A stretch of 64,000 bases of DNA from a virus (taxonomy: Duplodnaviria; Caudoviricetes): IMG/VR virus record IMGVR_UViG_3300028591_000013, positions 39,569-103,568 of that record; one strand, written 5' to 3'. The notes below the pieces were generated by a model. It saw only the letters and a list, made by a program, of their open reading frames with translations, did not search any database and was not told where the DNA came from. Below, in pieces: positions 6,248 to 46,629 of the stretch. The position numbers were made by a program, and so were the translations under genes. Position 1 is the first letter of the stretch. Each line of letters opens with the position of its first letter.

Positions 6248-6295
6248 TTTGATAATGTATTAAATTAAACATGTTATCTGGCCTCTTTGCCATTG

Positions 6296-6366
6296 TTGGA
6301 CCACCGAGATTCGAACTCAGACGATAGGACCCAAATTCCTATGTACTACCATTATACTATGGTCCA
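6296..6366 (-). tRNA. tRNA-Gln(UUG)
   Basis: Cloverleaf: acceptor TGGACCA/TGGTCCA, anticodon arm TAGGA-ATTTGGG-TCCTA, T arm CTGAG-TTCGAAT-CTCGG. Confidence 0.9.
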
Positions 6367-7844: not shown

Positions 7845-8453
7845 TTATGCTTCAACAGTAACACTCACAGCACCGCTGCCCATATCAACCTCGGGCTTGA
7901 ACTTGTTGATGGCCTCCTGGTAGTCAAGAGCCTTCTTCTTGTTGGATGCGATAGTAGAACGGATAGAGTCACAATAGCGCTCAATCTGATTCTTCAGAGC
8001 AACCCAACGATCAAGCTCAGCCTGGTTCAGAGCATTGGCCTTGGTTACGGTCTTAATACCATCTGCGAATATACGTAGCTCACCACGAAGAGCGTCCTTC
8101 ATGGCGTCATCGGTAGTCTGACCGAAGGTCGAACCACCTGCCACAATCGCAGCGCGGCTCTCATCACCCATGCCCTTATTGAAGATAACTACGTTGTTAC
8201 CATCGATATCCTGGGCAAACTCCTGGCTCAGTACGCTGTGGCCAATAACGTTAATAGCGCGCGGTCCACGATTCGTAATAAGATCGGGGCTCTGTGGGTT
8301 CTGAAGAAGCTGGTTCTTTGTATCGTTGAATTTCAGATCTACATCTTTACCTTCAACTGTAAAATACTGTGCTCCCGTAGGAATCATACGGGAAATGTTC
8401 ATTACCTGACCACGAATGGGGTTCAGGTTGTTTTCCATTTCAATATTGTTCAT
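7845..8453 (-). CDS. Hypothetical protein
   Basis: 202-aa ORF with TATCAAAA upstream. Confidence 0.75.
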   Translation of the reverse strand: MNNIEMENNLNPIRGQVMNISRMIPTGAQYFTVEGKDVDLKFNDTKNQLLQNPQSPDLITNRGPRAINVIGHSVLSQEFAQDIDGNNVVIFNKGMGDESRAAIVAGGSTFGQTTDDAMKDALRGELRIFADGIKTVTKANALNQAELDRWVALKNQIERYCDSIRSTIASNKKKALDYQEAINKFKPEVDMGSGAVSVTVEA

Positions 8454-8489
8454 ATTTATGTCCTTTTTGATATCGTCAGTGATTGACTA

Positions 8490-10735
8490 ACGACATAAAT
8501 GATACATATGTCCTCTCGGCTCGGACGTTGCCATAAAAAATTACTACAATTCTCTCTTCAGGCTGGCTACTGTCATTATTGGCTGTACAAGATATAGTGT
8601 TTCTTATTTTGTTCTTAATCTGGTTGTGCTATGCATATGGGAAGCGCGTTTACTTTACACACATAGTTATCAATATATTCCTCATACATCCCCTGCGAAC
8701 AGGTCGTGAAAGTCATGATAACGGAGGGCCAAACGGTATGGCACAGAATATCCATCAGTGTGAAAGGACCAAAAGCGCTAAATGCCAAGATGTGCAATCA
8801 AGCACCAAAAACGAAACACAATATTGAGTTTGGTAATATTTTGTCGAATCATATTTCCCATGCGGTACTAATCCGACGGAAGTTTGTTCGTTGGCAGCAT
8901 TCCATTGACTAATGCTCAAGGCAAAATTTCAATATTGGCTACTGTTCATAGAACTCAATAAAGTGCAGTTGGTTTTCGAGTATTTACCAAATATTTCTAA
9001 AACTTACTGCCTTACTGTTGTGACCCGGTCTTGCGATACCGAGTTAGGCACAGCTACCCCTGTTCTGGTTTTAAAGTGGTCAGAACAATCAATACCCCAC
9101 CGTTTAGTTTATCAGCTTTTGGCATCTCAGGCTAAATCTAACCTGTTCATTATCGGACATGACCTAGGAGCTCCAAAACTCCATCATGGATCTACGGCTT
9201 TTTACTGTACATTCAGCTTTGCTGCTGGCTTCTGTTTATAGTGCACGAATACTGGAGGAATTCCACCTCATACGCTATAAGATTTATCACCCACTTAATG
9301 TTCCGCTTCATCGGTTTGCAGTAGTACTAACTCCATTACAGAGGTTTCATACTGTTCACTTTACCCCTCCGAGACAGGGAGGTGACTTCACTTCGCGATA
9401 AGCTGCCTTGCATCGTTTGCGTATATTGCTTCATAGACTAAGCCGATTAGTTAGATTTGCAGTCTAACCCCTAACTATTATCTATCCTGCTACTTGCTTC
9501 TCAGGAACGGTTGGCACTCGGTTCTCTATCATACGTCTAAAATGGCTATGTTTCTTCAATACAACAGAAGGACACTTTTCTAAGGCGTTGAACATAACGT
9601 AATAGATTTCATAGAGGGACATCCAATTTTGTTTAATAATGTTAATTATCACACACTCGATTATTTTCACATAGTTTATCCTTATGCAATCAAGCTATAC
9701 CGCACATGAGTTTACTACTCTCACTGATATAGTACAGCAGTGTTGCGAACTATGTTATTATCTTCTCGTGTCGAGCGATCTCCGTATATACTGGAGTGTA
9801 TAAACTTCGAATCGACCCTAATGTAAGTTTGAATACTTGAGTTTTGACTGTCAGGTTGTCATCCTTCGACTCCAGCATTTCCTCTGGTACATCTCCAATC
9901 TATATTACTTAACTATCGCTTACCATAGTCTTTCATAACTTTAGAATAGTCTTACTCGCGGACTTCACTCGCGTGGCATTCAAGCATCAATGCCCTACTT
10001 CGCCATAGGTAGCGCCATCTACCTAGCGGTCATTTTCTCTTTTATATACCGAATAAACGACCAAAAGCTCATCGGTTGTCTTCATCACATTTTCCTCAGT
10101 ACCCCATCCCCGGTGACCCAGTGGGACCGTAGCCTCAAAGGTGGTCATCTAGTAATCGAAACTAGAAGGATTTCTTCAAGGACCGTAGTTACGGTACGGC
10201 GTAGATTGTCAAGCCATCTACTTGGCTAATATGCTCAGACTCGTCCCTCAATGCAGGTTTTGGAGACCTGTGACACTAGACTACAGCTAATTGTGAATTG
10301 ATACATCATCCTACGTTGTGGCATATTTCGGATGTTCAGCTCGTGTAACGTGATTTTACTACTATGTATCATTATAGTAAATCTATCGATACGGTTCAGT
10401 TTAGAGCTACTTTGAGATTACTCTCATTTCGTTTTACTCTGTGCGTCTTCCTTACTAATATCCCTCACTTCACGAGTCTGGCAAACGCATAAAGAACGTT
10501 GCTGGTATATATTAGTGTTGGGGTCTGATACAGACGCTCTCCCCACTTACTATGAACTTTTCTGTGTAGAGTATAGTTACACATCATAGCATTTCATCCT
10601 ACCTTTTGGGTTTCTCACCTGTTGAGCAGGCTAACATATTCTCGGATCAAGTATATACTCTTGCGCGCCCGGCTAATGAGACCGTTTACATGGCGCTGAC
10701 GGGTTGCCAAAACTGGCTAGGAAGCCAGTGAATCC
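8490..10735 (-). ncRNA. Candidate large structured non-coding RNA (about 2.2 kb)
   Basis: No credible ORF in either code (for example minus-strand TAA stops in all three frames within 9004-9046) and many short perfect hairpins. Strand is assumed from the flanking genes. Confidence 0.55.
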
Positions 10736-11230
10736 TCACTGGCCTCCCACCCCGGAGTGATTGTCGTTTTTGGAGTATACAATCTCATCGTCGACAATGA
10801 GCTGTATAGATGTAGCTTTAGAAGCTACAACAGAGTCCTTGGGCTGCTCCTCACGACCCATTGTACTGTTGTTACTCAGAGCAAGCTTCATACTGTCTGG
10901 ATTGACAGCCAAAGGATGCATTCCTGAGTCACGTGCTGTAGTACGATCAGCAACGTCTTTATAACGAGTCTTCCAACGTATTTTGGTTTCCCATCGTACG
11001 CTATCAATGATATTGATAGAGTCTTTGACCTTGGGAGATTCGCGCGAGAGTCTCTTATCCAGATCGAACTGGACGTCGAGTGGCAATCCTGGTCTATCGA
11101 AAACGATAGGCTGTGGCACAGGTTGCGCCATCGCGACCTTGTTGCTAGGGAACTGGAAGTTCTGAAACGCGGTTGCACAACCGAGAATCATCATAGCAAC
11201 GCAACAGATAATTGTTGTTAATCGTCTCAT
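10736..11230 (-). CDS. Hypothetical exported/lipoprotein-like protein
   Basis: N-terminal signal peptide MRRLTTIICCVAMMILGC. Confidence 0.7.
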   Translation of the reverse strand: MRRLTTIICCVAMMILGCATAFQNFQFPSNKVAMAQPVPQPIVFDRPGLPLDVQFDLDKRLSRESPKVKDSINIIDSVRWETKIRWKTRYKDVADRTTARDSGMHPLAVNPDSMKLALSNNSTMGREEQPKDSVVASKATSIQLIVDDEIVYSKNDNHSGVGGQ

Positions 11231-11307
11231 ACTTTGATAGCATTACTAGGCGAATACATAATCGCGAATTCCGCGGACAAAAGGCGTAACGCGCTCCTTA
11301 ATCCGCT

Positions 11308-14968: not shown

Positions 14969-15070
14969 TGTTATTTAATTAATCTCTTAAGAAAGTTCTT
15001 CTACACGGTCCCCTGCGACTTTTACATCAGGAACCAGCCTACCCTCCCAAGTTGCCCTCGAAGAACTATG

Positions 15071-15144
15071 TGGACCATGCAGGGCTTGAACCTGCGACCT
15101 CCAGATTATGAGTCTGTTGCTCTAACCAACTGAGCTAAAAGTCC
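15071..15144 (-). tRNA. tRNA with CAU anticodon (Met or lysidine-modified Ile2)
   Basis: GGACTTT...AGCTCAGTTGGTTAGAGC...CAGA-CTCATAA-TCTG...GCAGG-TTCAAGC-CCTGC-ATGGTCC-A. Confidence 0.9.
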
Positions 15145-15145
15145 A

Positions 15146-15440
15146 GATGCAGGCACTTAGGTAGCCTGCTCACCGACTTCACGCTGCCTCCTTGAGGCCC
15201 GTGTAGTCAACGATGTTCATATCGCCGTTTAATTTTATGTCAAAGCGCTTAATGTCTTTACTTCCTTCGCCCGTCAAAATCCTGTCGAGCCCGGAATGCC
15301 CACATGAGGCCTACGAGTGGGCTGCGTAGATAGTCACCCCTTATTCGCTCTATGTGACAGATAGAACTCGGGACTTGCCGTGGACCCGGAGGGATTCGAA
15401 CCCTCGTCCGAACGAAATACCTCAGACACGCTAAGATTTC
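15146..15440 (-). ncRNA. ssrA: Circularly permuted two-piece tmRNA; tag peptide (A)GDMNIVDYTGLKEAA
   Basis: Acceptor piece (..GGAC-GAGGG-TTCGAAT-CCCTC-CGGGTCC-A, 3' end at 15381) lies upstream of the coding piece (GGGCTCG-ACAGGATTTTGAC, 5' end at 15292). The 7-bp acceptor stem has G3:U70 and A73. Tag ORF at 15226-15179. Outer boundaries are approximate. Confidence 0.85.
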
Positions 15441-15653
15441 TTTAGTTGCAGCTTGTCAAATTGAGTATATGGTTAATACTACTCTGCAACCCAGCTGAAT
15501 CTCCCAATGATCAGTTGGAAAATCCAATTTAAGGCTATTTACAGGCTCTTTGACGCGTTTTCTAGCCTCTTGTGGGTAGCGAACCCACTCAAGGATATAC
15601 GACGCCTCAAATCGCTTATAACGTCACCTTAAATGTTCTACATTGACCATGCT

Positions 15654-17301: not shown

Positions 17302-17865
17302 TTACTCGTGGACGGTTGTTGTTATTGTTACTTTCTTACCATCTACAACAGTATCTTTACTGGTAGTAGTAGTCTTATTTACCCTGGTTGGCGGTGCCTC
17401 CGTCACCGTCGTTTTCTCTTCTTTGACTAATTCTACGGATGCAATCGGCTTGTTAGTAGAACTGTCTAGTTTAGTACTCGTATCCTTTGAACTCGGTAAG
17501 TTATTATAGTTCAGTATAGTAGGATGCGTGTACTCGTTGACTATTTCCTGCACTGTTACACTAGTTGATGTTCTCAATAGTACTGTGGACACTGCACGAA
17601 TAGCCTCTTCAGACATGGATAAGAAGATAGAATCCACGTTGTGTTTGGTAGCCATAGCTATCTGGAAGGCAACTACCTCGTCTGATGAAATCATCTGAGG
17701 GTTGATAGCGTTCTCTACAGACGTTTCAATGTCTGTAGGCTCAATAGGACCTTTGATGTAAGCACCAAGTCCATTCTCTGTGCAAGAGTTTACTCCTGCG
17801 AGCACGGCAATCGTGATGACTACCGATGCAAGGGCCATGAGGCCCCATTCAAGAATTTTGTTCAT
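17302..17865 (-). CDS. Hypothetical membrane/lipoprotein-like protein
   Basis: N-terminal hydrophobic helix ending in VNSC; Thr-rich tail. Confidence 0.7.
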   Translation of the reverse strand: MNKILEWGLMALASVVITIAVLAGVNSCTENGLGAYIKGPIEPTDIETSVENAINPQMISSDEVVAFQIAMATKHNVDSIFLSMSEEAIRAVSTVLLRTSTSVTVQEIVNEYTHPTILNYNNLPSSKDTSTKLDSSTNKPIASVELVKEEKTTVTEAPPTRVNKTTTTSKDTVVDGKKVTITTTVHE

Positions 17866-18004
17866 CGTTTGATACGAATTAAATTGTTAATAATTTATGT
17901 TAATTAAACCCAAAAAGATTCAATTTAAAATGTCCTACCAGATGTTTGACATTACATCTCCCAACCTCACGTACGCGAAGTACGCCCCTTAACCTCGGAC
18001 ATAG

Positions 18005-18076
18005 TAGTCTATAGCAGAGTCGAACTGCTCTTTAGAGAATGAAAATCTCTCGTCCTAACCGATAGACGAATAGACC
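18005..18076 (-). tRNA. tRNA-Glu(UUC)
   Basis: Acceptor GGTCTAT/ATAGACT, anticodon arm AGAGA-TTTTCAT-TCTCT, T arm AGCAG-TTCGACT-CTGCT. Confidence 0.9.
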
Positions 18077-18338
18077 GTGTGTACTGTTTTCACCGACTTG
18101 ACGAGGTCAGACGATACTACCGTGAAACGTCGGATCTTCAGGTACAGTACTAAACCTATGGGTTGTGGGGTGTTTCACAATACCCCACACTGGCAACACT
18201 TCTTTGTTTCTCAACAAATAATGCTCGACTGCATAGATACAGATGTACGTATGCTATGAGTCTGTGTTCTCTTTCTGGAAAACCAAAACCATTAAGAATG
18301 AACAATCGGTTTAACATTATAAAGTAATGCCATTATTG

Positions 18339-18411
18339 CTGGGGAAGGCGGGCTCAAACCGCCAACATCTAGATCCAGCGTCTAGCGTTCTATCAATTGA
18401 ACTATTCCCCA
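18339..18411 (-). tRNA. tRNA, probably Gln(CUG), with non-canonical G33
   Basis: Acceptor TGGGGAA/TTCCCCA (U1-A72, G73), anticodon arm CTAGA-CGCTGGA-TCTAG, T arm GGCGG-TTTGAGC-CCGCC. Confidence 0.7.
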
Positions 18412-18988
18412 TACATGCATTTCAGCATGTTTCTTTGGCCCCTCTTTTTTAAGTGGTTTGACTGGCCGCCTGAGATTACCACCGGTTGTACACTTCTACC
18501 TGTACCCATAGTGTCAGCTTCTTTTTAAGTCTCCTCTGACCACGACATATTCACTACTTACAACCGAGGTATACTTTCGTTCCGTCTCGTACTGTTGCTA
18601 AATGGAGTAGTAGGCCATTCGATTACTTTTGCAACACATTTCTTCTCTCTTCAGACTTCCACTGTCATTCTTGGTGGTGTTGCGGTTGGTGCTGTGCAAC
18701 ACTAGTATATTGCACACTTTCTAGATTTGCACCATGCTTGCAATCTGTCTACACATACAATCAACCTTAAGCTTGTTGTTGCTGCCAGTTACCAAGCAAT
18801 TTTGTCAAAAGACATTCCCTCTCATCATTCGTCGCTTCTTTACAGTCGTCTCTCTCAGACTGAGGTACCATGGAGATGCATGGTGTGACTTGCGGGCTTG
18901 AGGTTTCCGCTTTAGCTGATTTCTAAATGTCATATAAATGAGTCTCCGTGTTTCACAACAGAGAGACTCTAAACATTAGTAAATTCAT

Positions 18989-19246
18989 CTATGGCTTCAC
19001 AAATATAATATCATTGATTAAGCAATTTGGCTTATTGCTATTATCGCCATTTTTTGTTTTTACGTCAGGACATAACATTATATTGTCCTCGTACAGACAA
19101 CCAGTACATCCTGATGTACGCTTACGGGCTCTTACGATACACCCGTTACAGGACCAGAATTGTCCTGGTTTAATCTTTTTCATATTCTCATTTTTATATA
19201 AAACCTCATAATCAGTATAATTACAATGAGAAGTACACCCAGCCAA
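18989..19246 (-). CDS. Small Cys-rich protein (TAG stop; true start may be at MKKIKPG)
   Basis: CNGC, CTGC and further Cys residues. Confidence 0.6.
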   Translation of the reverse strand: MAGCTSHCNYTDYEVLYKNENMKKIKPGQFWSCNGCIVRARKRTSGCTGCLYEDNIMLCPDVKTKNGDNSNKPNCLINDIIFVKP

Positions 19247-19273
19247 AAGCCAGGCGGTAAAGGTTCTGAGTTC

Positions 19274-19486
19274 TTACTGATGCTGCTCATATTTCTTAAA
19301 ATACTTATTAACACCAATAATTTTCTCACATGTTGTTACACCATGAGACTTTTTGAACTCCTGTAGTGCTTTGTTATATGCACAATTTTTGATTTCACAT
19401 ACTGTACATGCACACTGATGTGGTTTTGTTGGGGTGACTATGTATTTCTCGTCACCTATAGTTACAACAGAGTTTATATTAATCAT
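19274..19486 (-). CDS. Small Cys-rich protein
   Basis: CACTVC...C...C. Confidence 0.6.
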   Translation of the reverse strand: MININSVVTIGDEKYIVTPTKPHQCACTVCEIKNCAYNKALQEFKKSHGVTTCEKIIGVNKYFKKYEQHQ

Positions 19487-19643
19487 TGTTCATATTTTTT
19501 TGTGACAAACCTTCTTTGTAACCATCATCGTATCCGACGTTATAACCTTTTGACCAACCATCACGCCTACCATCCCAATAACCCATTAGGAACATAGCTA
19601 CTAATAGGCATACTTCAAAAGCTACTTTTAATACTACAATCAT
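19479..19643 (-). CDS. Small membrane protein with GYxxG repeats
   Basis: Hand translation: MIVVLKVAFEVCLLVAMFLMGYWDGRRDGWSKGYNVGYDDGYKEG; overlaps both neighbours. Confidence 0.55.
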   Translation of the reverse strand: MIVVLKVAFEVCLLVAMFLMGYWDGRRDGWSKGYNVGYDDGYKEGLSQKNMNND

Positions 19644-19867
19644 CTTATTATTTTAAATATAGTTTTTTGTTTACCTCCCAATTTACCTATTACTTCAGAG
19701 ATCTTGTTGATGAATACTTCGGCAGCATTTTCCGTCAAGTTTTCTACAACAATCATACTAGCGCCACCATCTTTAGCAATTACTCTTACACGAGAATTGC
19801 CTTTATCATCCACACGCTTCTTTTTAGGAAGCGGTGGATGTATTTGATTCTGTGTGCAGCATCCCAT
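19640..19867 (-). CDS. Hypothetical protein
   Basis: 75-aa ORF in a tightly packed operon. Confidence 0.6.
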   Translation of the reverse strand: MGCCTQNQIHPPLPKKKRVDDKGNSRVRVIAKDGGASMIVVENLTENAAEVFINKISEVIGKLGGKQKTIFKIIR

Positions 19868-19868
19868 A

Positions 19869-20372
19869 TCATTTGTTGTTTTCTATGAAACACTTACACA
19901 TTTTTATGGCCAACTTCTTGGAGAAGTGACCATAAGGGAGTACAATGCTGTTATCACCAAGCTCGATTTCGGATAACAATGCCAGTGCCACGCAGTCTCC
20001 GTCTTCGAGTTCTTGAAGGACCTCTTTAACGAATTCTACGTCTTTATTTCTCTCCCTCTTTTCGTCTTGAACCTTCTCGTCTTCAATCTCCATCTTATTG
20101 ATGGCATCGAGGAATGTCTGTGTTGCCATCTCAAGATCATGAATGTCCTGGTGATCGAATACCATGTTGGTTCTTGATGTCAACAATACTGTTGTGTTAT
20201 CGCACTCAATAGACCACGTTAAATGGCAATCTTTTGCCAAAGCAACGATACGGTTACGCAACTTCTTGTCTGCGAATCTTTTAGTTTCGCTGTCTGTCAG
20301 TACAGTTACGATTGAACACTTAATGGCTTTTACACCATTTTCAACTTCTACCAAACTAAATTTCTGTTCCAT
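19869..20372 (-). CDS. Hypothetical protein
   Basis: 167-aa ORF. Confidence 0.7.
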   Translation of the reverse strand: MEQKFSLVEVENGVKAIKCSIVTVLTDSETKRFADKKLRNRIVALAKDCHLTWSIECDNTTVLLTSRTNMVFDHQDIHDLEMATQTFLDAINKMEIEDEKVQDEKRERNKDVEFVKEVLQELEDGDCVALALLSEIELGDNSIVLPYGHFSKKLAIKMCKCFIENNK

Positions 20373-20413
20373 AAATTTGATATTTATTTAGTTGTTTTAT
20401 ATTTTCCAGCAAC

Positions 20414-20645
20414 TTAACCTATGCTGGATTTAGGTTCTAGAGGTTTTGGGTAGCGGCACATTCCCATTTGTTCAGCACAATACCATAATCCCAATATACA
20501 AGGATGATGATTTTCTTTTCTACAGGTCTCACATGAGTAACCAAATTCTGATTTAGTTATGCGAAATTGCTTTAACTCCCTTTTGACTCGTAAAGTCACA
20601 ATTTGTCCAGCTTTCCATTTTGGAACTAAACACATCTTTGCCATA
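20414..20645 (-). CDS. Small Cys-rich protein (start at MAKMCLV; start coordinate approximate)
   Basis: CETC...C...C...C; directly follows the stop of the upstream gene. Confidence 0.55.
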
Positions 20646-21008
20646 TTAATTTCCTTTTTTCCAGTTAATGTCATATGCAATTGAATCAGCTTTTGTTTCC
20701 AATTCAAATGCACCATAGAAATCACCGTCAACCAATTGGTCTAGAGATACCCACTCATCGCACTCAACCAAAACATCCTCAACATAATTTGGATTATCCA
20801 CCCAAATCCGATGCAACAGTGCATTGTATGCATAGATTATGTTGTTTTTGTTTTCTAATTGAGTCTCGAGAGCGTTAGAGTTTATTTTCTCTAATTGAGA
20901 AAACTTAGCACACTGCCCTATTGCAATTGCAGTGAGGGCGACCAAGGTAATAGCTAGAGCTATTATAATAGCTTCTAGTCTTTTTGGAATTAAATACTTC
21001 TTTTTCAT
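20646..21008 (-). CDS. Hypothetical membrane protein
   Basis: N-terminal transmembrane helix. Confidence 0.65.
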   Translation of the reverse strand: MKKKYLIPKRLEAIIIALAITLVALTAIAIGQCAKFSQLEKINSNALETQLENKNNIIYAYNALLHRIWVDNPNYVEDVLVECDEWVSLDQLVDGDFYGAFELETKADSIAYDINWKKGN

Positions 21009-21708
21009 ATGTTTAAGTTTGAATTGATTTCTGTTAAAAACGGTGAGAGTGCTACCGCTGTAGCATAATCATCATGAGTTCTTTGAATATGAGTAAAATT
21101 GCGTACTGATATACTCTCTCACCGCTGTGATTGTTCCTGAAACAATCTATTCACCTAAAAACAACTAAATGTGGTTTCTACAAAAAGGGAGAGCATATCT
21201 GAAAGCCCAGATTATGCCCTCCACACGCGTGCTCGGTCTTATGTACAACTCAGACCGACTAGTTTGCATGTATCCCATGACTTCCATGCACTCACAGTGT
21301 TCCGACTCCTATTTTCAAATAGCGAGTAACTGTGTGTTTTGTGCATATTCCAATTGTTTTATGCACATCCCACAATATTTGGACTATCTACGTACGATAG
21401 TAATTGTGGGTTTTGGTGAACGCACGTGTAATTCACCTGTTTCAGCATCCAGATAATGATTTTTCACATTTCTTTTTCGACCATATTGTAGCTGAATACA
21501 TTTGTGGACGGATTTTCTTGGTCACCGTCTCACGATAATCCATCAGAGGCTGTCTCTCCCCACATAGCGTGACTTAAGGAATATGTGGTAAGTGTGATGG
21601 ATTAAAAATTTGAGCGTTTCAGTTTATCTTACGCACAACTTGAACAGTATCTCTTTTCAGGCCTATTTCAAGAGTTCCTTCTGTTCACGCCAGGCCGTTA
21701 AACATATT

Positions 21709-21763
21709 ACTGTTTCGTCTCAATTTTCAGGGACTCATCAGGAGCTTTGGTGGGCTCGACAGT
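21709..21763 (-). ncRNA. Type III hammerhead ribozyme
   Basis: ACUGUC^GAGC-CCACCAAA-GCUC-CUGAUGA-GUC-CCUGAAAAUUGA-GAC-GAAA-CAGU: complete catalytic core, three stems and a GUC cleavage triplet. Confidence 0.9.
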
Positions 21764-21783
21764 GTAGCAGTTTAGACACTTGC

Positions 21784-22008
21784 TTAGGTGTAGAAGATGT
21801 CTATTATACGATTTAACCTAATAAATATGTCTTTGTTTGACATTTTATTATTTGCTACTTCGTTTGATAGGCTTATCAATTGTCGTCTTATAGTATTTAT
21901 TCGTATTTTGTCATCTGTTTTATTATGATGTAACGACAACCAATGCATCAATAGCAATGTTGCACATGCTATTATTACCACTAATAAAATTGTTATTTGT
22001 GTAGTCAT
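21784..22008 (-). CDS. Small membrane protein
   Basis: N-terminal transmembrane helix; TATCAAAA upstream. Confidence 0.6.
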   Translation of the reverse strand: MTTQITILLVVIIACATLLLMHWLSLHHNKTDDKIRINTIRRQLISLSNEVANNKMSNKDIFIRLNRIIDIFYT

Positions 22009-22260
22009 AATTTTGATAATTAAAAGATTTGTGCTACTCCTTTACACCGAATAGCTCTGTGAATAGTACACTGGAATATTAACAATGTGAGTGTGGCCTG
22101 CCCATTTTGTAACTTCCTGAACATATTCTTGTCCTGCCACATTGATTGTTTGTTTCTTGTATGTCATATTGCTATGATATTATAATTGACAAACACCAAA
22201 TGCAGAACCAACCCACTATCATACCTAATGCAGTGGGGATAAATGAGAGAATTGATTTCA

Positions 22261-22437
22261 TCATATTTTGAAATTATGATCTTCCATTATTTTCTTGATG
22301 AAGCCATTAGCCCTTTCAGAGTCTTCGTCGCACGATAGTACGATATCACACATATTCACATACAGCTCTAGTTTCTGTTTGAATTGTTTTACATACTCAT
22401 GAGGTAGTATATCCTCACCTTTAATACCTTTTGCCAT
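22261..22437 (-). CDS. Small hypothetical protein (MAKGIKGED...)
   Basis: 58-aa hand-translated ORF with a GAAATCAATT leader. Confidence 0.55.
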   Translation of the reverse strand: MAKGIKGEDILPHEYVKQFKQKLELYVNMCDIVLSCDEDSERANGFIKKIMEDHNFKI

Positions 22438-22553
22438 ATTTTGTTTGTTTAAGAATTGATTTCAAGGAAAAGGCCCGCTTTCGAATTGCGGGAGTGCGGG
22501 CCAAGGTGCTTAGGCATCACCACCCAACTCTTTAACGCGGTTGGGTTTACGTT

Positions 22554-22748
22554 TTAGTAATTACAGTCACCTGATACTTCTAAAGCAAGACCTTCGTCTG
22601 TCAGGCATATTTCAGCAGATTTCTTGAAGTCGTGATTCCAATAATCTGGATACCATACTCCAACAGGAAGATCATCTGGAAGCGTTGCTAAAAAAGCTTT
22701 TAATTGTTTTACGCTTTTTACTGTTTTTGTTTTGATTTCTTTTGCCAT
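22554..22748 (-). CDS. Small hypothetical protein
   Basis: TVKSVKQLKAFLATLPDDLPV resembles a common small-phage-protein motif; GAAATCAATT leader. Confidence 0.6.
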   Translation of the reverse strand: MAKEIKTKTVKSVKQLKAFLATLPDDLPVGVWYPDYWNHDFKKSAEICLTDEGLALEVSGDCNY

Positions 22749-22815
22749 AAATATGTTGTTTAAAAATTGATTTCAATCAAACACAGTATACTGACATCCA
22801 GCGATACTGTGTAGT

Positions 22816-23010
22816 TTAGAGTCTTTCGATGCGTTGATAAGATGCGAGCATCATAGCTTGTCGTGGCGTGACAGCTATTTTTATTAGCCCGCATTTTGCG
22901 AACACATTCTTAACTCTACGGCCAGTTGTACCAGCCTTTTTGTCGTGCAATAAATGCACATGTTCTCCATCACTTGATGCGATGGAATTACGATTGAATC
23001 TTGGTCTCAT
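22816..23010 (-). CDS. Small hypothetical protein
   Basis: 64-aa ORF. Confidence 0.5.
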   Translation of the reverse strand: MRPRFNRNSIASSDGEHVHLLHDKKAGTTGRRVKNVFAKCGLIKIAVTPRQAMMLASYQRIERL

Positions 23011-23250
23011 ATATTATGTTGTTGGTGAATATTCAAACAAAAATGTCTGTCTTTCCAGACTGCCAGACTCTTATGCGCTCACATGCTCGTCACACATGTT
23101 TGCGGAACAGTTCCTTTAGCCGATTACCCACACGCCCTAACTGTCAACGGTGGAACGTAACTTTCGTCACGATTAAAACCTCTGGTTCTCTTTGGCATCG
23201 CCTCTCGTCCATAATGACGTTCATTTTGAGATCTCGGAGTGCGCACAGCT

Positions 23251-23294
23251 GTTTCAAACGTTTCAAACGTTTCAAACGTTTCAAACGTTTCAAA
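23251..23294. repeat. 9-bp tandem repeat (GTTTCAAAC) x about 5
   Basis: Seen directly; encodes FET repeats in ORF 23124-23357. Confidence 0.9.
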
Positions 23295-23433
23295 TTGTAC
23301 GGAGTTGCAGACTAACTGCCATGTTTTGGTCGCCCGTTGTTTTTGGTGAATATTCACTTAAATAATATTCTTGATTGATTTATTGTTTCATTTTGGCTAT
23401 TTTATGTGTTGTTTTACTCCGAGACAAAAGGTA

Positions 23434-23462
23434 AAAGGGCCGTGCTCTGTGGCACGACCCCG
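23434..23462 (-). terminator. Rho-independent terminator
   Basis: GGGTCGTGC-CACAGA-GCACGGCCC-TTTT immediately after ORF 23472-24089. Confidence 0.65.
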
Positions 23463-23471
23463 TGTTGCGGA

Positions 23472-39520: not shown

Positions 39521-42500
39521 ACATATTGCAAAAATCGTTCTTGGCGAAGAATTGTATAATATAAAAGATACTGAGGTTAGGGGCGATCTTAATAGTCACG
39601 AATCAAATACAAATGTGCACGTAACCGCTGCTGAGAAGGAATATTGGAATTCAAAAGTTAACCCTCCTTCTTATTCAGCACCTACTGCTAAATCATTAAC
39701 GTATATTGGAGAACCTCAGGCTTTACTTAACGCAGGAAGTTCTACTGCCGGAACCATTCAGTATTCTATAGATTAGAGCGAATGGTCTACTAATATTCCG
39801 CAGGCTACTAATGCTGGAACATATTTTGCATATTGGAGATTCATTGGTGCAGAGGTAGTTTATATAGACTCTACTGCAATAGAAGTAACAATATCTAAAG
39901 CAAACCCAGCATACACAGCTCCTAGTACTAAATCGCTTATATACAATGGTAATTCACAAGAGCTAATCAACGCTGGAGAGTCTAATGACGGAACGTTTAG
40001 TTATTCTGCAGATGAAGAAACTTGGACATCTTCTGTTCCACAAGCCACTAATGCTGGAGAGCATACTTCATATTGGAAGTTGACAGGTGACGCTAATCAT
40101 AATGATGTAGTATCGACACCTATTACAACTACTATTTCTAAGGTCACTCCTACTGTAACAGCACCTGTTACAAAGACTGGTCTTGTATATAGCGAACTTG
40201 CACAAACTTTAGCAGATAATGGTTCTACTAACTTTGGAACGTTGCAGTATTCATCAGACGGACAGACTTATACAACATCTGTTCCTCAAGCAATTAATGC
40301 CGGTGAACATACTGTATACTATAAGGTAGTAGGTGATAGCAACATCAACGATGTTGCTGCCGCAACAATAACAGCTTCTATAGCTAAAGTAACTCCTACT
40401 GTAACTGCTCCTACTCCAAAGGTTGTTGTATTCGATGGTACAGCACAAGAGCTTATTACAGCTGGTTCTACTGATTTTGGTACAATACAATATAAGGTTG
40501 GTAGTGATTCATGGTCAACAGAAATACCAACTAGAACAAACGGAGGTTCATACGAACTCTTATATAAAGTAGTCGGAGATTCAAACATTAATGATGTACC
40601 ATATGATACAGTAGAATGTTCTATCTCTGAAAAAGAAATAACGGCTACCGTAGAACTGTCACAAGATACATATGTTTACGATGGACTTGCTAAGACTCCA
40701 TCTGTAACAGTTAAAGACGGTAGTGTGATAATTGACCCATCTGAATATTCTGTTTCTTATAGTAATAATATTAATGCAGGAACAGCAACGGTTTCAGTTT
40801 ATGATAACGACGGTGGTGATTATAATGTAGTGGGCAGTGCTACCTTTACTATTACAAAGACTAGTGGAAGTGTAACCTCAGCCCCTACTGCTAAATCTCT
40901 TACATACAGCGGTTCGGCACAAACCCTTGCTAACGAAGGAAGTGGTACAGGTATAATGTATTACAGTCTTAGCGAAGATAGTGACTTTAGTACAACAGTA
41001 CCTACTGGAACAAATTCCGGTAGTTATACTGTATATTATTACGCTGCAGAAAGTGCTAACTATAATCAAAGCTCAACTGAAAGCATATCAGTGACGATCG
41101 GAAAGGCCAACGGTAGTGTCACCTCTGCTCCTACGGCAAAGAGCCTTACATACAGCGGTTCTGCACAGACGCTTCTCAATGCTGGTTCTGGTACTGGCAC
41201 GATGTATTACAGCCTGAATTCTTCAAGCGACTTCTCTACAACAATTCCTACTGGTACTAATGCTATAAGCTACACAGTTTATTATTACGCTGCTGAAAGT
41301 GACAATTATAATCAGAGTGCTACCGGTAATATTTCTGTAAGTATTGGCAAAGCAGATCCTACATATACTGCTCCTACTGCTACATCTCCTATGTACACTG
41401 GCTTAGCACAAGCATTGTTAGTTACAGGCTCTACAAGTGAAGGTACAATGCAATACAGCAGTGACAATTCTACTTGGGATACTACTATACCTACTGGTAC
41501 CAATGCCAATACATATACCTCATATTGGAGAATAATTGGGGATAGTAACCATAAGGATAAAGAGTCTGATTCTATTAATACTGTTATTGCTAAAGCAAGT
41601 CAAAGTGCTCCTACTGCAACTGGAGATTCTGTTATCTATGGCAACACAGCAACAGCAACAGCTAGCGGAGGAGGAAATCAAGGTACTATTGAATGGAGTA
41701 ATGGCGGCACTCTTACTGGAAATGTAGGAAGCAAAATTACTAAAGCAAGATGGTCTGGAAATAGTAATTATGAGGCTTCTCCTTACTCTAATGAGGTAAC
41801 ATTGGAAATTACGAAAGCTGCAGGAAGTGCAACAGCTCCAACAGCTAAGGCTCTTACATATAATAGTAGTGCCCAAACTTTAGCAAATGCTGGTAGTGGT
41901 ACTGGAACAATATATTATAGATTAGGAACAAGTGGTGATTTCTCTACTACAGTACCTAGTTAGACAAATGCAGGTTCTTGGACATTGTACTACTATGCTG
42001 CAGCCTCGACTAACTACACTTAGAGTGATACTGGTTCTATAACAGTTTCTATAGGTAAAGCAAATCAATCTGCTCCAACAGCTTCAGGAGCTACTACAAC
42101 ATATAGTACAACGGCTACAGCTACAGCATCAGGTGGTGGTGGTCAGGGTTCTATTGAATGGTCTAATGGTAATACTTAGACATCAGTTGGTTCTAAAACT
42201 ACTCAAGCTAGATGGTCTGGAAATAGTAATTATAATGCTTCAGATTGGTCAAACCAAGTAACATTAACAATGAACAAAGCTAGTGGCTCCGTTTCAACTG
42301 CCCCTGCAAACAGAGGAGTTACATATAATGGATCTAATCAGACTTTGGTAACTGCAGGCTCTGGTACTGGAACTATGTATTATTATGGTGCTAGTAATTC
42401 TTCTTATAGTACTAGTTTACCCTATGCTTCAGGTGCTGGTAGTTATACTATTTATTACTATTGTGCTGAGTCTACTAACTATACTCAAAGTTCCACTGGA

Positions 42501-44565: not shown

Positions 44566-46629
44566 ATGGTAGACTTTAATAAAAAGATAATTAATACAAA
44601 CAAGTTCCGCCAGGCAGCAATATTTTTCAAAGAACATGGAACATATACGCTAGCCCCGCGAGGCACTACAGATTATACACAATACTGGGACCGGGAAACG
44701 GAGCGCTGTATAAATGGTTATGTTGCTCCTGACGGAGATTTTATTACCGGCTACCATTATTTTTACTTAAACTACAGTCCTATCATTAAACGTAAAAACA
44801 CAGAATATATAGACCGTAACGGAGATAAACGAATCAGGCGTGAGCGTATACTAGACTTCCCTGATTTCTGGGACGGCGATTATTACTTCTTTTAGGCTGT
44901 AGAAGAGGCCGAGCTGCAAGGTAAACACCTTGCAGTTCTAAAGGCCCGTAAAAAGGGATTTAGTTTTAAAGGCTCATCAATGCTTGTTAGAAACTATGCC
45001 CTTATTAAAGAATCTAAGAGCTTTGCGATAGCGTCAGAACAAAAGTTCCTTATTGGAGATGGACTGCTAACGAAAGCTTGGGAGATTATGGATTTTGTAG
45101 ACTAGCACACAGACTGGGCTAAGCGTAGATTAACCGCTACCCGTATGGAACGTGTTTCTGGTTTTAAAATCAAAGATGAATTCGGTAGAGAAACCGAACA
45201 AGGATACAAATCATCAATAACAGGAATGACTCTTAAGAATGATCCAGAGCGTGTTCGTGGTATTCGTGGTAAGCTTGTACTCTTTGAGGAGAGTGGTAAG
45301 TTCCCAAATCTAGAGACAGCATGGCGTGTAAGCCAGCCTTCTATGGAGGATGATAACGGAGAGGCATTCGGACTTATGATTGCTTTTGGTACTGGTGGTA
45401 CTGAAGGTGGTCAGTTTGATGGATTAAAAACATTATTTTATAGTCCAGAAGCTTATAACGTGCTTAGCTTCCCTAATATATGGGATGATAAAGCTGAGGA
45501 AACTAGATGCGGTTATTTCTCACCTTTCTATCTAAACATGGAAGGTTTCGATGAGAATGGAGACCGCATATTTATGGATAAAGATGGAAACAGTCTAGTA
45601 GAGAAAGCTATCGAAGATACTATAGCCAAACGTAATGAAGTTAAGTCTGGCGGTGCTTCATAGACGTCTATTGACCGTTTTATATCTGAGCGACCTATAA
45701 AACCATAGGAAGCTGTATTAGAATTGGGTAAAAATATATTCCCCCGTAAACTCTTAATGGACCAATTAACCCGTATTAGAACTAATAAGAAACTGTAGAA
45801 CATGAAACATATAGTAGATCTAGTGTGGGATGGTAAAGGAGGAGTAGAAGCACGTGAAAAGAAATCTGGAGATATAACAACATATCATTTAAAGAAAGAT
45901 GACAAACCAGGAGGATCAGTAGTTATATGGGAATACCCAATCCCAGATCCCCCCTTCGGACTATACATTGGCGGTTGCGACCCGTATGATCACGACGAGT
46001 CGTTCACTAACTCCTTAGGATCGACGTTCATTTTTAAGCGCGTTAGAGCAGGAGAAGCATGGAACGACGTAATTGTGGCAGAGTACACCGGTCGTCCGGA
46101 TACTGCGGAAGAGTATTATGAAAATGTTCGCAAACTACTGATATTTTATAATGCGAGACTTTTGTTTGAGAATGAACGTAAGGGTATTTACCCTTACTTC
46201 ACAAACAAACATTGTGATTACCTACTGGCAGATCAACCAGATAAAATTATTACGGAGGTCTTTAAAGACAGTAAAGTGCAGCGCCGTAAAGGCTGTCACA
46301 TGACTAAATAGATTAGGGCTTATGGAGAAGGATTAATTCTCGAATGGCTAATGGAAGAATATGAAGAAGGCCATCCTAATCTAGAAAGAATATACAGCGA
46401 ACCACTTATAGAAGAACTAATAGAGAATGATGGTGTACGAAACGTAGACCGTGTTATTGCCCTGTGTATGGTTATGATATATAGAGAAGAGCTCTATTAG
46501 GTTAAAGTGTCAGCTGCAAAAGAAGAAAACAAACAGGTTGAACTCTTCGAATTGCCGTTATTCAGTTAGCGTTATTGGGATGCTGGCGATAACGACGTGA
46601 AAGACGATATACCTTTATTTAGCTTTTAA
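44566..46629 (+). CDS. terL: Terminase large subunit with eight in-frame TAG
   Basis: Walker A-like LKARKKGFS, Walker B LVLFEESG, AFGTGG, nuclease motifs GCDPYDHD and NVDRV; TAG at 44893, 45103, 45661, 45706, 45796, 46309, 46498 and 46567. Confidence 0.92.

Follow-up and report, generated by a model that had tools for sequence, protein, structure and literature searches.

A candidate gene for a very large structured non-coding RNA in crAss-like phages filed under Suoliviridae

OLE is a large, highly conserved bacterial non-coding RNA (ncRNA) with many conserved unpaired nucleotides; it is chromosomal, is found in extremophilic Firmicutes and has dedicated protein partners. ROOL (Rumen-Originating, Ornate, Large) is roughly 580 nt long and has pseudoknots and intertwined 5' and 3' parts. 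It is found in phages and prophages near transfer RNA (tRNA) islands, in gut and rumen, and has no known protein partner or function (PMC12286853). GOLLD, a large structured ncRNA of unknown function, occurs in phages and prophages, often near tRNA genes, and at just over 800 nt is the largest of the three large ornate RNA classes analysed (PMC12286853). The intergenic DNA of phages is additionally known, from a survey of IMG/VR, to contain short structured motifs in their thousands, each 29-151 nt long (PMC10690425). In the present study, we analysed a 64,000-nt stretch of the IMG/VR virus record IMGVR_UViG_3300028591_000013 (positions 39,569 to 103,568; hereafter the window), in which a tract of 2282 nt at window positions 8454-10735 is free of open reading frames (ORFs). 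We consider it probable, from sequence comparison, that this tract holds the gene of a very large structured ncRNA from a new family, approximately 2.0-2.4 kb long across the family and 2.28 kb here, encoded on the minus strand and confined to crAss-like phages filed under Suoliviridae.

Conservation of the tract and absence of coding signal

The source phage genome is complete (103,568 bp, with direct terminal repeats), and the window is its right-hand 64 kb. The phage is crAss-like, and the records that match it at the nucleotide and protein levels are filed under Suoliviridae. The first 30 kb of the window contain minus-strand genes in the standard code; in the plus-strand late genes TAG must be read as glutamine, which bears out the use of this code in the first-pass annotation, a reading of the letters alone. 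The tract accounts for about 2% of the genome and has minus-strand genes on both sides. It is bounded on the low-coordinate side by the ATG of a 202-aa gene (7845-8453, minus strand) and on the high-coordinate side by the stop codon of a 164-aa gene (10736-11230, minus strand). Both genes are complete, each with its own start and stop, as that annotation had stated; however, it had placed the start of the element at 8490, whereas the element runs from 8454. Position 1 of the RNA was set at window 10753.

Nine reference phages of faecal origin (human, pig and macaque), namely cr272_1, cr273_1, cr131_1, cr130_1, a Bohxovirus, cr52_1, cr124_1, cr7_1 and cr4_1, have an unannotated gap of 2.0-2.2 kb at the equivalent site. 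A blastn search added cr53, cr56, cr60, cr109, cr113, a lemur virus and one unannotated record, giving 16 Suoliviridae reference phages from the guts of human, pig, macaque and lemur hosts. The gene order is conserved: a sigma factor, a ~130-aa gene, a ~475-aa gene, a ~150-aa gene, the gap and a ~200-aa gene. IMG/VR was scanned twice with an invariant core motif, yielding 42 and 91 loci, and the gap measured 2025-2367 nt in all 94 IMG/VR loci with enough sequence. Altogether, the family has more than 130 members in IMG/VR. These 94 full-length loci formed 26 clusters at 88% identity, and the 26 cluster representatives were used to build a profile hidden Markov model (nhmmer) of 2107 positions. 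The sole match to this profile in the window extends from 10746 to 8455 on the minus strand. The gaps of Burzaovirus do not contain the exact core motif, yet the profile matched them nearly end to end (positions 48-2105 of 2107, E ~1e-184). Among Loutivirinae, blastn query coverage reached up to 100%, and five sequence blocks located between RNA positions 104 and 2292 are conserved in both subfamily groups. The collection of syntenic homologues with nhmmer, a step proposed in the first-pass annotation, thus returned a collinear unit of 2.0-2.4 kb in every relative examined. Judged by these alignments, the tract is a single collinear homologous unit at one syntenic site across two Suoliviridae subfamilies.

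The tract is 74-77% identical to that of the nearest relatives (loci L019 and L029), compared with 33-37% for the protein of the next gene. Against cr272_1, patches of the tract are approximately 89-91% identical, and the flanking proteins 29-36%; against the reference phages, the flanking proteins are 22-36% identical. On these identities, purifying selection on the tract exceeds that on its neighbours. The core motif had only four matches in 185,579 prokaryote species genomes, all of them in contigs of metagenome-assembled genomes (MAGs), one contig being 100 kb long, indicating that the element belongs to phages. The four contigs (L144-L147; GTDB contigs in Lachnospiraceae, Sphaerochaeta and Intestinibacter MAGs) contain the full element and are probably mis-binned phage contigs; one of them, at 100,100 bp, has the size of a crAss-like genome. 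Prevotella or Segatella is the probable host, given that a homologue is assigned to a Prevotella MAG and that cr52_1 bears the name Buchavirus copri.

The longest ORF in the tract has 109 aa under the standard code; reading TAG as glutamine gives 122 aa, TGA as tryptophan 116 aa and TAA as glutamine 139 aa. The longest stop-free run is 110 codons, similar to that in shuffled sequence (99 +/- 22), and the earlier claim that no credible ORF exists even with TAG as glutamine therefore stands. No long ORF was found in any lineage examined, and no ORF of at least 40 codons is shared across lineages on either strand. Substitutions in nine close pairs showed no codon phase in the tract (p 0.29-0.92), whereas third positions dominate the substitutions in the adjacent gene (p down to 1e-19). 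It is therefore scarcely plausible that the tract is a cryptic or decayed coding region with an unusual code, frequent frameshifts, numerous very small genes or a gene on the antisense strand, although some public annotations and some antisense stop-free runs favour it. Homologous tracts carry 'hypothetical protein' annotations in Bohxovirus (L007:3797-4303), cr7_1 (L143:4138-4620) and Dulem virus 42 (L149:2971-4979); the Dulem virus 42 record has a dozen annotated ORFs of 30-100 aa there, and the cr131_1 record is also annotated. In some relatives, antisense stop-free runs reach 151-198 codons. However, neither the window nor its close relatives have such runs, and we rejected them as genes because the apparent protein similarity merely reflects conserved nucleotides. 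The annotated hypothetical proteins are probably gene-caller artefacts. We conclude that the tract does not encode protein.

Covariation and the case for one folded RNA

Covariation among homologues, whose absence the first-pass annotation would have counted against an RNA, was present along the whole length of the tract. RNAalifold on a full-length L-INS-i alignment gave 177 consensus pairs, 86% of which were canonical compared with 36-44% when the partner was slid, and 116 of the 177 showed compensatory pair types. Each third of the RNA behaved similarly (85-88% canonical compared with 31-52% when slid). The 5' domain, compared across 26 lineages, contained 23 pairs with 88.9% of cells paired, compared with 67.7% in shuffled alignments; its covariation score was 0.544, compared with 0.183 in shuffled alignments (reached in none of 500) and at most 0.20 in slid ones. 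When 63 distinct sequences of this domain were used, 94% of cells were paired and all 10 pairs counted had changed on both sides (0/500 shuffles). The middle part contained 19 pairs, of which 13 were compensatory. Stems in the 5' alignment were altered on both sides around invariant loops, and a covariance model of the 5' domain, run on 100 sources that included Burzaovirus and the lemur virus, gave 99 matches with exactly one at each locus. On the evidence of these alignments, the tract comprises dozens of local helices that are kept by compensatory changes, with invariant unpaired blocks between them.

The paired columns contained 522 G-U cells and 191 A-C cells, indicating that the folded strand is the minus strand, on which the adjacent genes are also encoded. 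Single-stranded DNA tolerates G-T wobble as well; therefore, this asymmetry is compatible with an element that acts at the DNA level, such as a replication origin, a packaging site or other cis-acting DNA with hairpins in single-stranded DNA. The genes for DNA polymerase, primase and helicase, which are located a few genes away, are in keeping with such an element. However, the tract contains no iterons, tandem repeats or long palindromes, its GC content (37-48%) shows no AT-rich dip, and its cumulative GC skew is monotonic without a turn. Moreover, known origins do not resemble an ordered series of helices that extends over 2 kb and includes invariant unpaired blocks, and the genome ends are direct terminal repeats located away from the tract. 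We thus regard a DNA-level element as very unlikely.

We searched for known families using Rfam models, including those of GOLLD, ROOL, OLE, group I and group II introns, ribosomal RNA (rRNA) and RNase P. At the gathering score, cmscan of the whole window returned three tRNAs only; a permissive scan of 8300-10900 (E up to 10) returned one chance match (E 8.6), and the gaps of five relatives (E up to 1) returned no match. The statement of the first-pass annotation that the tract is not GOLLD, ROOL or OLE is consistent with these results. No published description of the element was found in the literature. These scans also bear on a self-splicing intron, or another known mobile RNA element, that has lost its ORF. 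Many group I introns are known in crAss-like phages (PMC7886860), and a late gene of one relative is split by 1.3 kb. Against this, the tract matched no group I, group II or other Rfam model at a threshold as permissive as E 10, the genes on its two sides are complete, and it contains no ORF. A reverse transcriptase (RVT_1 domain) was not found in the genome, and such an enzyme was also rejected as a partner for the RNA. No lineage lacks the element or has it anywhere but at this locus, which is unlike a mobile intron, and an intron is the least credible of the explanations considered here. The split gene is located in NC_055902.1 (cr131_1), where the counterpart of the late gene at 44566-46629 of the window is broken into two pieces, 17336-18748 and 20040-20672, that are 1.3 kb apart. 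Both pieces contain in-frame TAGs, and the interruption is a candidate intron, intein or inserted gene. The tract itself is conserved, structured and non-coding, and it cannot be placed in any known family.

Several observations weigh against a single folded RNA. The minimum free energy (MFE) of the single sequence was not below that of shuffled sequence; the mean z was -0.2 on the minus strand (150-nt windows), and the flanking coding DNA was more negative (z -0.9 to -1.25). Only the 5' edge at 10600-10825 was exceptional (z -3.6 to -4.7). The description of the tract as hairpin-dense in the first-pass annotation is thus not significant in itself, because the folding energy is no better than that of shuffled sequence and is weaker than that of the flanking genes. 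Nine of the ten hairpins listed in that annotation are present where it placed them, whereas the arms of CAGGTT/AGCCTG are not true complements. We claim no long-range helix because candidates were as frequent in a parallel-stack control (46 stacks vs 35), and the two long inverted repeats of the window (I3 and I4), which were considered as long-range pairing, are not conserved. On two MAFFT alignments of the 3' half (RNA 1320-1640 and 1452-1524), RNAalifold returned 0 pairs because gaps were visibly out of register. We found neither a promoter nor a terminator at the ends of the tract: a sigma-70-type promoter scan was uninformative, and no Bacteroidota-type or extracytoplasmic function (ECF)-type promoter upstream was conserved by eye. 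Finally, the neighbour proteins offer no functional clue in a recognisable family or fold. The 475-aa and 202-aa proteins matched no Pfam or PHROG family, other leads were sub-threshold only, and their AlphaFold models (predicted local distance difference test scores of 75.6 and 74.0) had no Foldseek match in PDB at E <= 0.001. The decisive signal is comparative, i.e., conservation and covariation, and is not visible in the single sequence.

The pairing evidence is limited to local hairpins, and no long-range pairing was demonstrated; therefore, a cluster of independent small structured RNAs, cis-regulatory leaders or both, including a long 5' untranslated region of the 202-aa gene, deserves consideration. 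The 3' edge hairpin lies directly against the ribosome-binding region of that gene, and thousands of 29-151-nt motifs are known in phage intergenic DNA (PMC10690425); single hairpins of the tract may be among them. However, parts of a cluster would have kept their order, orientation and total length in 26 divergent lineages, with no gene inserted between them despite neighbour proteins at 22-36% identity. In addition, no internal terminator-like site was found on the minus strand of the tract, the conserved blocks are evenly distributed, and indels are restricted to the variable hairpins, similar to expansion segments. We consider such a cluster possible but unlikely. Because order and length are fixed, and because all 26 lineages have kept the tract free of inserted genes although its neighbours evolve fast, the comparison suggests that the tract is most likely one giant phage RNA. 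The proposal of the first-pass annotation, a very large and undescribed phage ncRNA, is therefore supported as a candidate by conservation, covariation, the lack of coding signal and the lack of a known family.

Mapped features and neighbourhood

The features of the tract are listed in Table 1 in the 5' to 3' direction of the minus strand.

Table 1. Positions of the predicted features in window coordinates
Feature	Position	Strand	Basis or remark
Whole tract, candidate giant structured RNA locus	8454..10735	-	No ORF; profile match; synteny
5' edge, two hairpins	10713..10750	-	One over the stop codon of the 164-aa gene; the other CUGGC/GCCAG, then UUUU
Hairpin H0, conserved loop UCUCAUUAG	10670..10684	-	Loop nearly invariant
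Helix P1 (10644-10650 with 10593-10599) around invariant core	10593..10650	-	Covariation
Helix P2, closing a variable-length insert	10550..10589	-	Covariation
Hairpin P3 (GGGG...CCCC)	10521..10544	-	Covariation
Two adjoining hairpins, RNA 533-553 and 554-572	10182..10221	-	RNAalifold on L-INS-i alignment
Hairpin TCTAGT/ACTAGA with T-loop-like loop (G)UUUCGAUUA(C)	10148..10166	-	Loop conservation
Helix GGUCGUUU / AAAUGACC around conserved loop AUGCGGUAUAUAAAAG, RNA 691-727	10027..10063	-	Covariation
Hairpin RNA 951-968 (UAUACA..CCAGUAUA), adjoining conserved GGUCGAUUCGA	9786..9803	-	Covariation
Hairpin RNA 1285-1305, GTTAGA/TCTAAC	9449..9469	-	Covariation
Top-conserved block of the 3' half (AGUGGGUGA...GUAUUCGUGCACUAUAAAC)	9240..9295	-	Among the five blocks common to both groups
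Helix RNA 1558-1600 (AGCCGUAG ... GUUCGAUAAUGAAACG region)	9154..9196	-	7 bp, 6 compensatory pairs
3' edge hairpin (arms 8473-8480, 8486-8493), then CGAUAUCAAAAAGGA	8461..8493	-	Conserved block

The 5' edge hairpin is kept with altered sequence in close relatives and is 42% paired family-wide (MAFFT); the hairpins at this edge are possibly a terminator, a processing site or the start of the RNA. In H0, variants altered on both sides of the stem (CGG/CCG, UGGG/CCCA, CUGG/CCAG and UGUGU/ACACA) were read from the alignment, and its column count of 67.6% paired was lowered by misregister. The core inside P1 consists of GAGAAUAUGUUAGC, the P1a hairpin (10618-10630) and GUGAGA..CAAAAGGUA, with letters invariant in 26/26 lineages. 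All six pairs of P1 changed on both sides, and the paired share was 96% over the 26 lineages and 95% over the 63 distinct sequences; three of the four P1a pairs covary. P2 similarly changed on both sides at 6/6 pairs, with up to four pair types per position and 91.8% paired; in P3, 4/4 pairs changed on both sides, with 89% paired in the 26 lineages and 92% in the 63 sequences.

Further downstream, the hairpins at RNA 533-553 and 554-572 consist of 7 and 6 bp, respectively, all of them compensatory; the former is the GTAGAT/ATCTAC hairpin listed earlier and is 71% canonical family-wide. In the hairpin with the T-loop-like loop, the loop GUUCGAUUC (motif at 10152-10162) is conserved and the stem varies between lineages; its column counts were poor because of misregister. 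T-loop-like UUCGAU motifs were rejected as a feature of the tract, since the two that it contains are no enrichment over chance in the window. The RNA 691-727 helix has 8-9 bp, is 96% canonical and shows 4 compensatory pairs, and its closing pair is UA in 13 cases and CG in 12. The RNA 951-968 hairpin has 6 bp with 6 compensatory pairs (RNAalifold), and 5/5 pairs changed on both sides in a separate fold count. The RNA 1285-1305 hairpin has 7 bp with 6 compensatory pairs, is 86% canonical and shows up to five pair types per position.

The top-conserved block of the 3' half contains a hairpin at 9255-9269 with the loop UGGAAUU. Its structure was given by hand and then counted on the alignment: 96.3% of cells were paired compared with 85.2% in shuffled alignments (0/500), with exchange among AU, GC and CG. 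The 3' edge hairpin is also among the five universal blocks and is conserved in both groups with the stem variants UUAG/CUGA, UGG/CCA and CCGUA/UACGG. The motif CGAUAUCAAAAAGGA is located 7 nt ahead of the ATG of the 202-aa gene and is unique in the window. The hairpin and this ribosome-binding stretch may regulate translation of the 202-aa gene or mark a 3' processing site of the RNA.

The tract is located in the vicinity of genes for tRNAs (6295-6366 and 15070-15144) and transfer-messenger RNA (tmRNA; 15088-15470): tRNA-Gln is 1.5 kb downstream, and tRNA-Met and the tmRNA are 4.3 kb upstream. A terminator-like hairpin on the minus strand at 11263-11275, CGCGGAATTCGCG followed by a T-rich tail, is located between the 475-aa and 164-aa genes and could be the end of a transcription unit just upstream of the neighbour gene of the RNA. 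In a second ORF-poor tract of approximately 2.46 kb (21009-23471), no ORF exceeds 104 aa in the standard code or with TAG as glutamine. We rejected it as a paralogue of the element at 8454-10735 because it has no full-length profile match; blastn against the phage collection also returned no match, and it could contain small genes or be another fast-evolving non-coding region. A 1.4-kb stretch at 18412-19868 adjoins tRNA-Gln(CUG) and contains only short or antisense ORFs.

Proposed role and comparison with described large RNAs

If the tract is one RNA, we infer that it would be transcribed along with the leftward early/middle gene block and trimmed near the hairpins at both edges. The RNA would then act in trans during infection as a stable scaffold or RNA-protein particle, in which the invariant single-stranded blocks may make contacts within the tertiary structure, with protein or with a second RNA. 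Its context, phage-borne and beside tRNA and tmRNA genes, makes it likely by analogy that it works like GOLLD and ROOL, and a link to the translation apparatus is our favoured guess. TAG recoding was found in 6/6 carriers tested; this shared recoding fits a translation-related role, and common descent alone may explain it. A more specific proposal, which we regard as rather improbable, is that one RNA of approximately 2.2 kb with a defined three-dimensional fold forms a machine or particle on the scale of rRNA that is unique to these phages. It would act on host translation, e.g., by sequestering release factor 1 or ribosomal components, and would support a mid-infection switch of TAG to glutamine.

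All members examined have retained this non-coding element, which exceeds 2 kb and is better conserved than the genes beside it; this implies an important and so far unstudied RNA-based function. As a single molecule, it would exceed in length every structured ncRNA candidate known from a phage, being approximately 2.5 times as long as GOLLD, and would be a prime target for cryogenic electron microscopy and functional work. The invariant core motif and the covariance model provide a ready marker of this phage lineage, and the spurious small hypothetical proteins over the tract in several GenBank records should be removed.

In size and architecture only, the tract resembles 16S/23S rRNA: both are on the kilobase scale and combine short covarying helices with invariant single-stranded blocks, length variation confined to 'expansion' hairpins and unremarkable folding energy. 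However, the tract matches no small- or large-subunit rRNA model at E up to 10. The motifs of the IMG/VR survey (PMC10690425) were likewise obtained from IMG/VR data and covariation in phage intergenic DNA; compared by description, they are 29-151 nt long, and none is described within a 2-kb unit. Similar to OLE, the tract is large and conserved with conserved unpaired nucleotides, whereas it has no Rfam match and is found only in phages. Similar to ROOL, it is phage-borne and located near tRNA genes, but it has no Rfam match, is about four times longer and has no demonstrable long-range pairing. The likeness to GOLLD, which is also phage-encoded and near tRNA genes, concerns context and not membership, since the tract does not match the GOLLD Rfam model, is approximately 2.1-2.3 kb rather than just over 800 nt, and is carried by crAss-like phages of gut Bacteroidota-type hosts. 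By its context, the element is an analogue of GOLLD and ROOL, but it has no relationship to either and greatly exceeds both in length.

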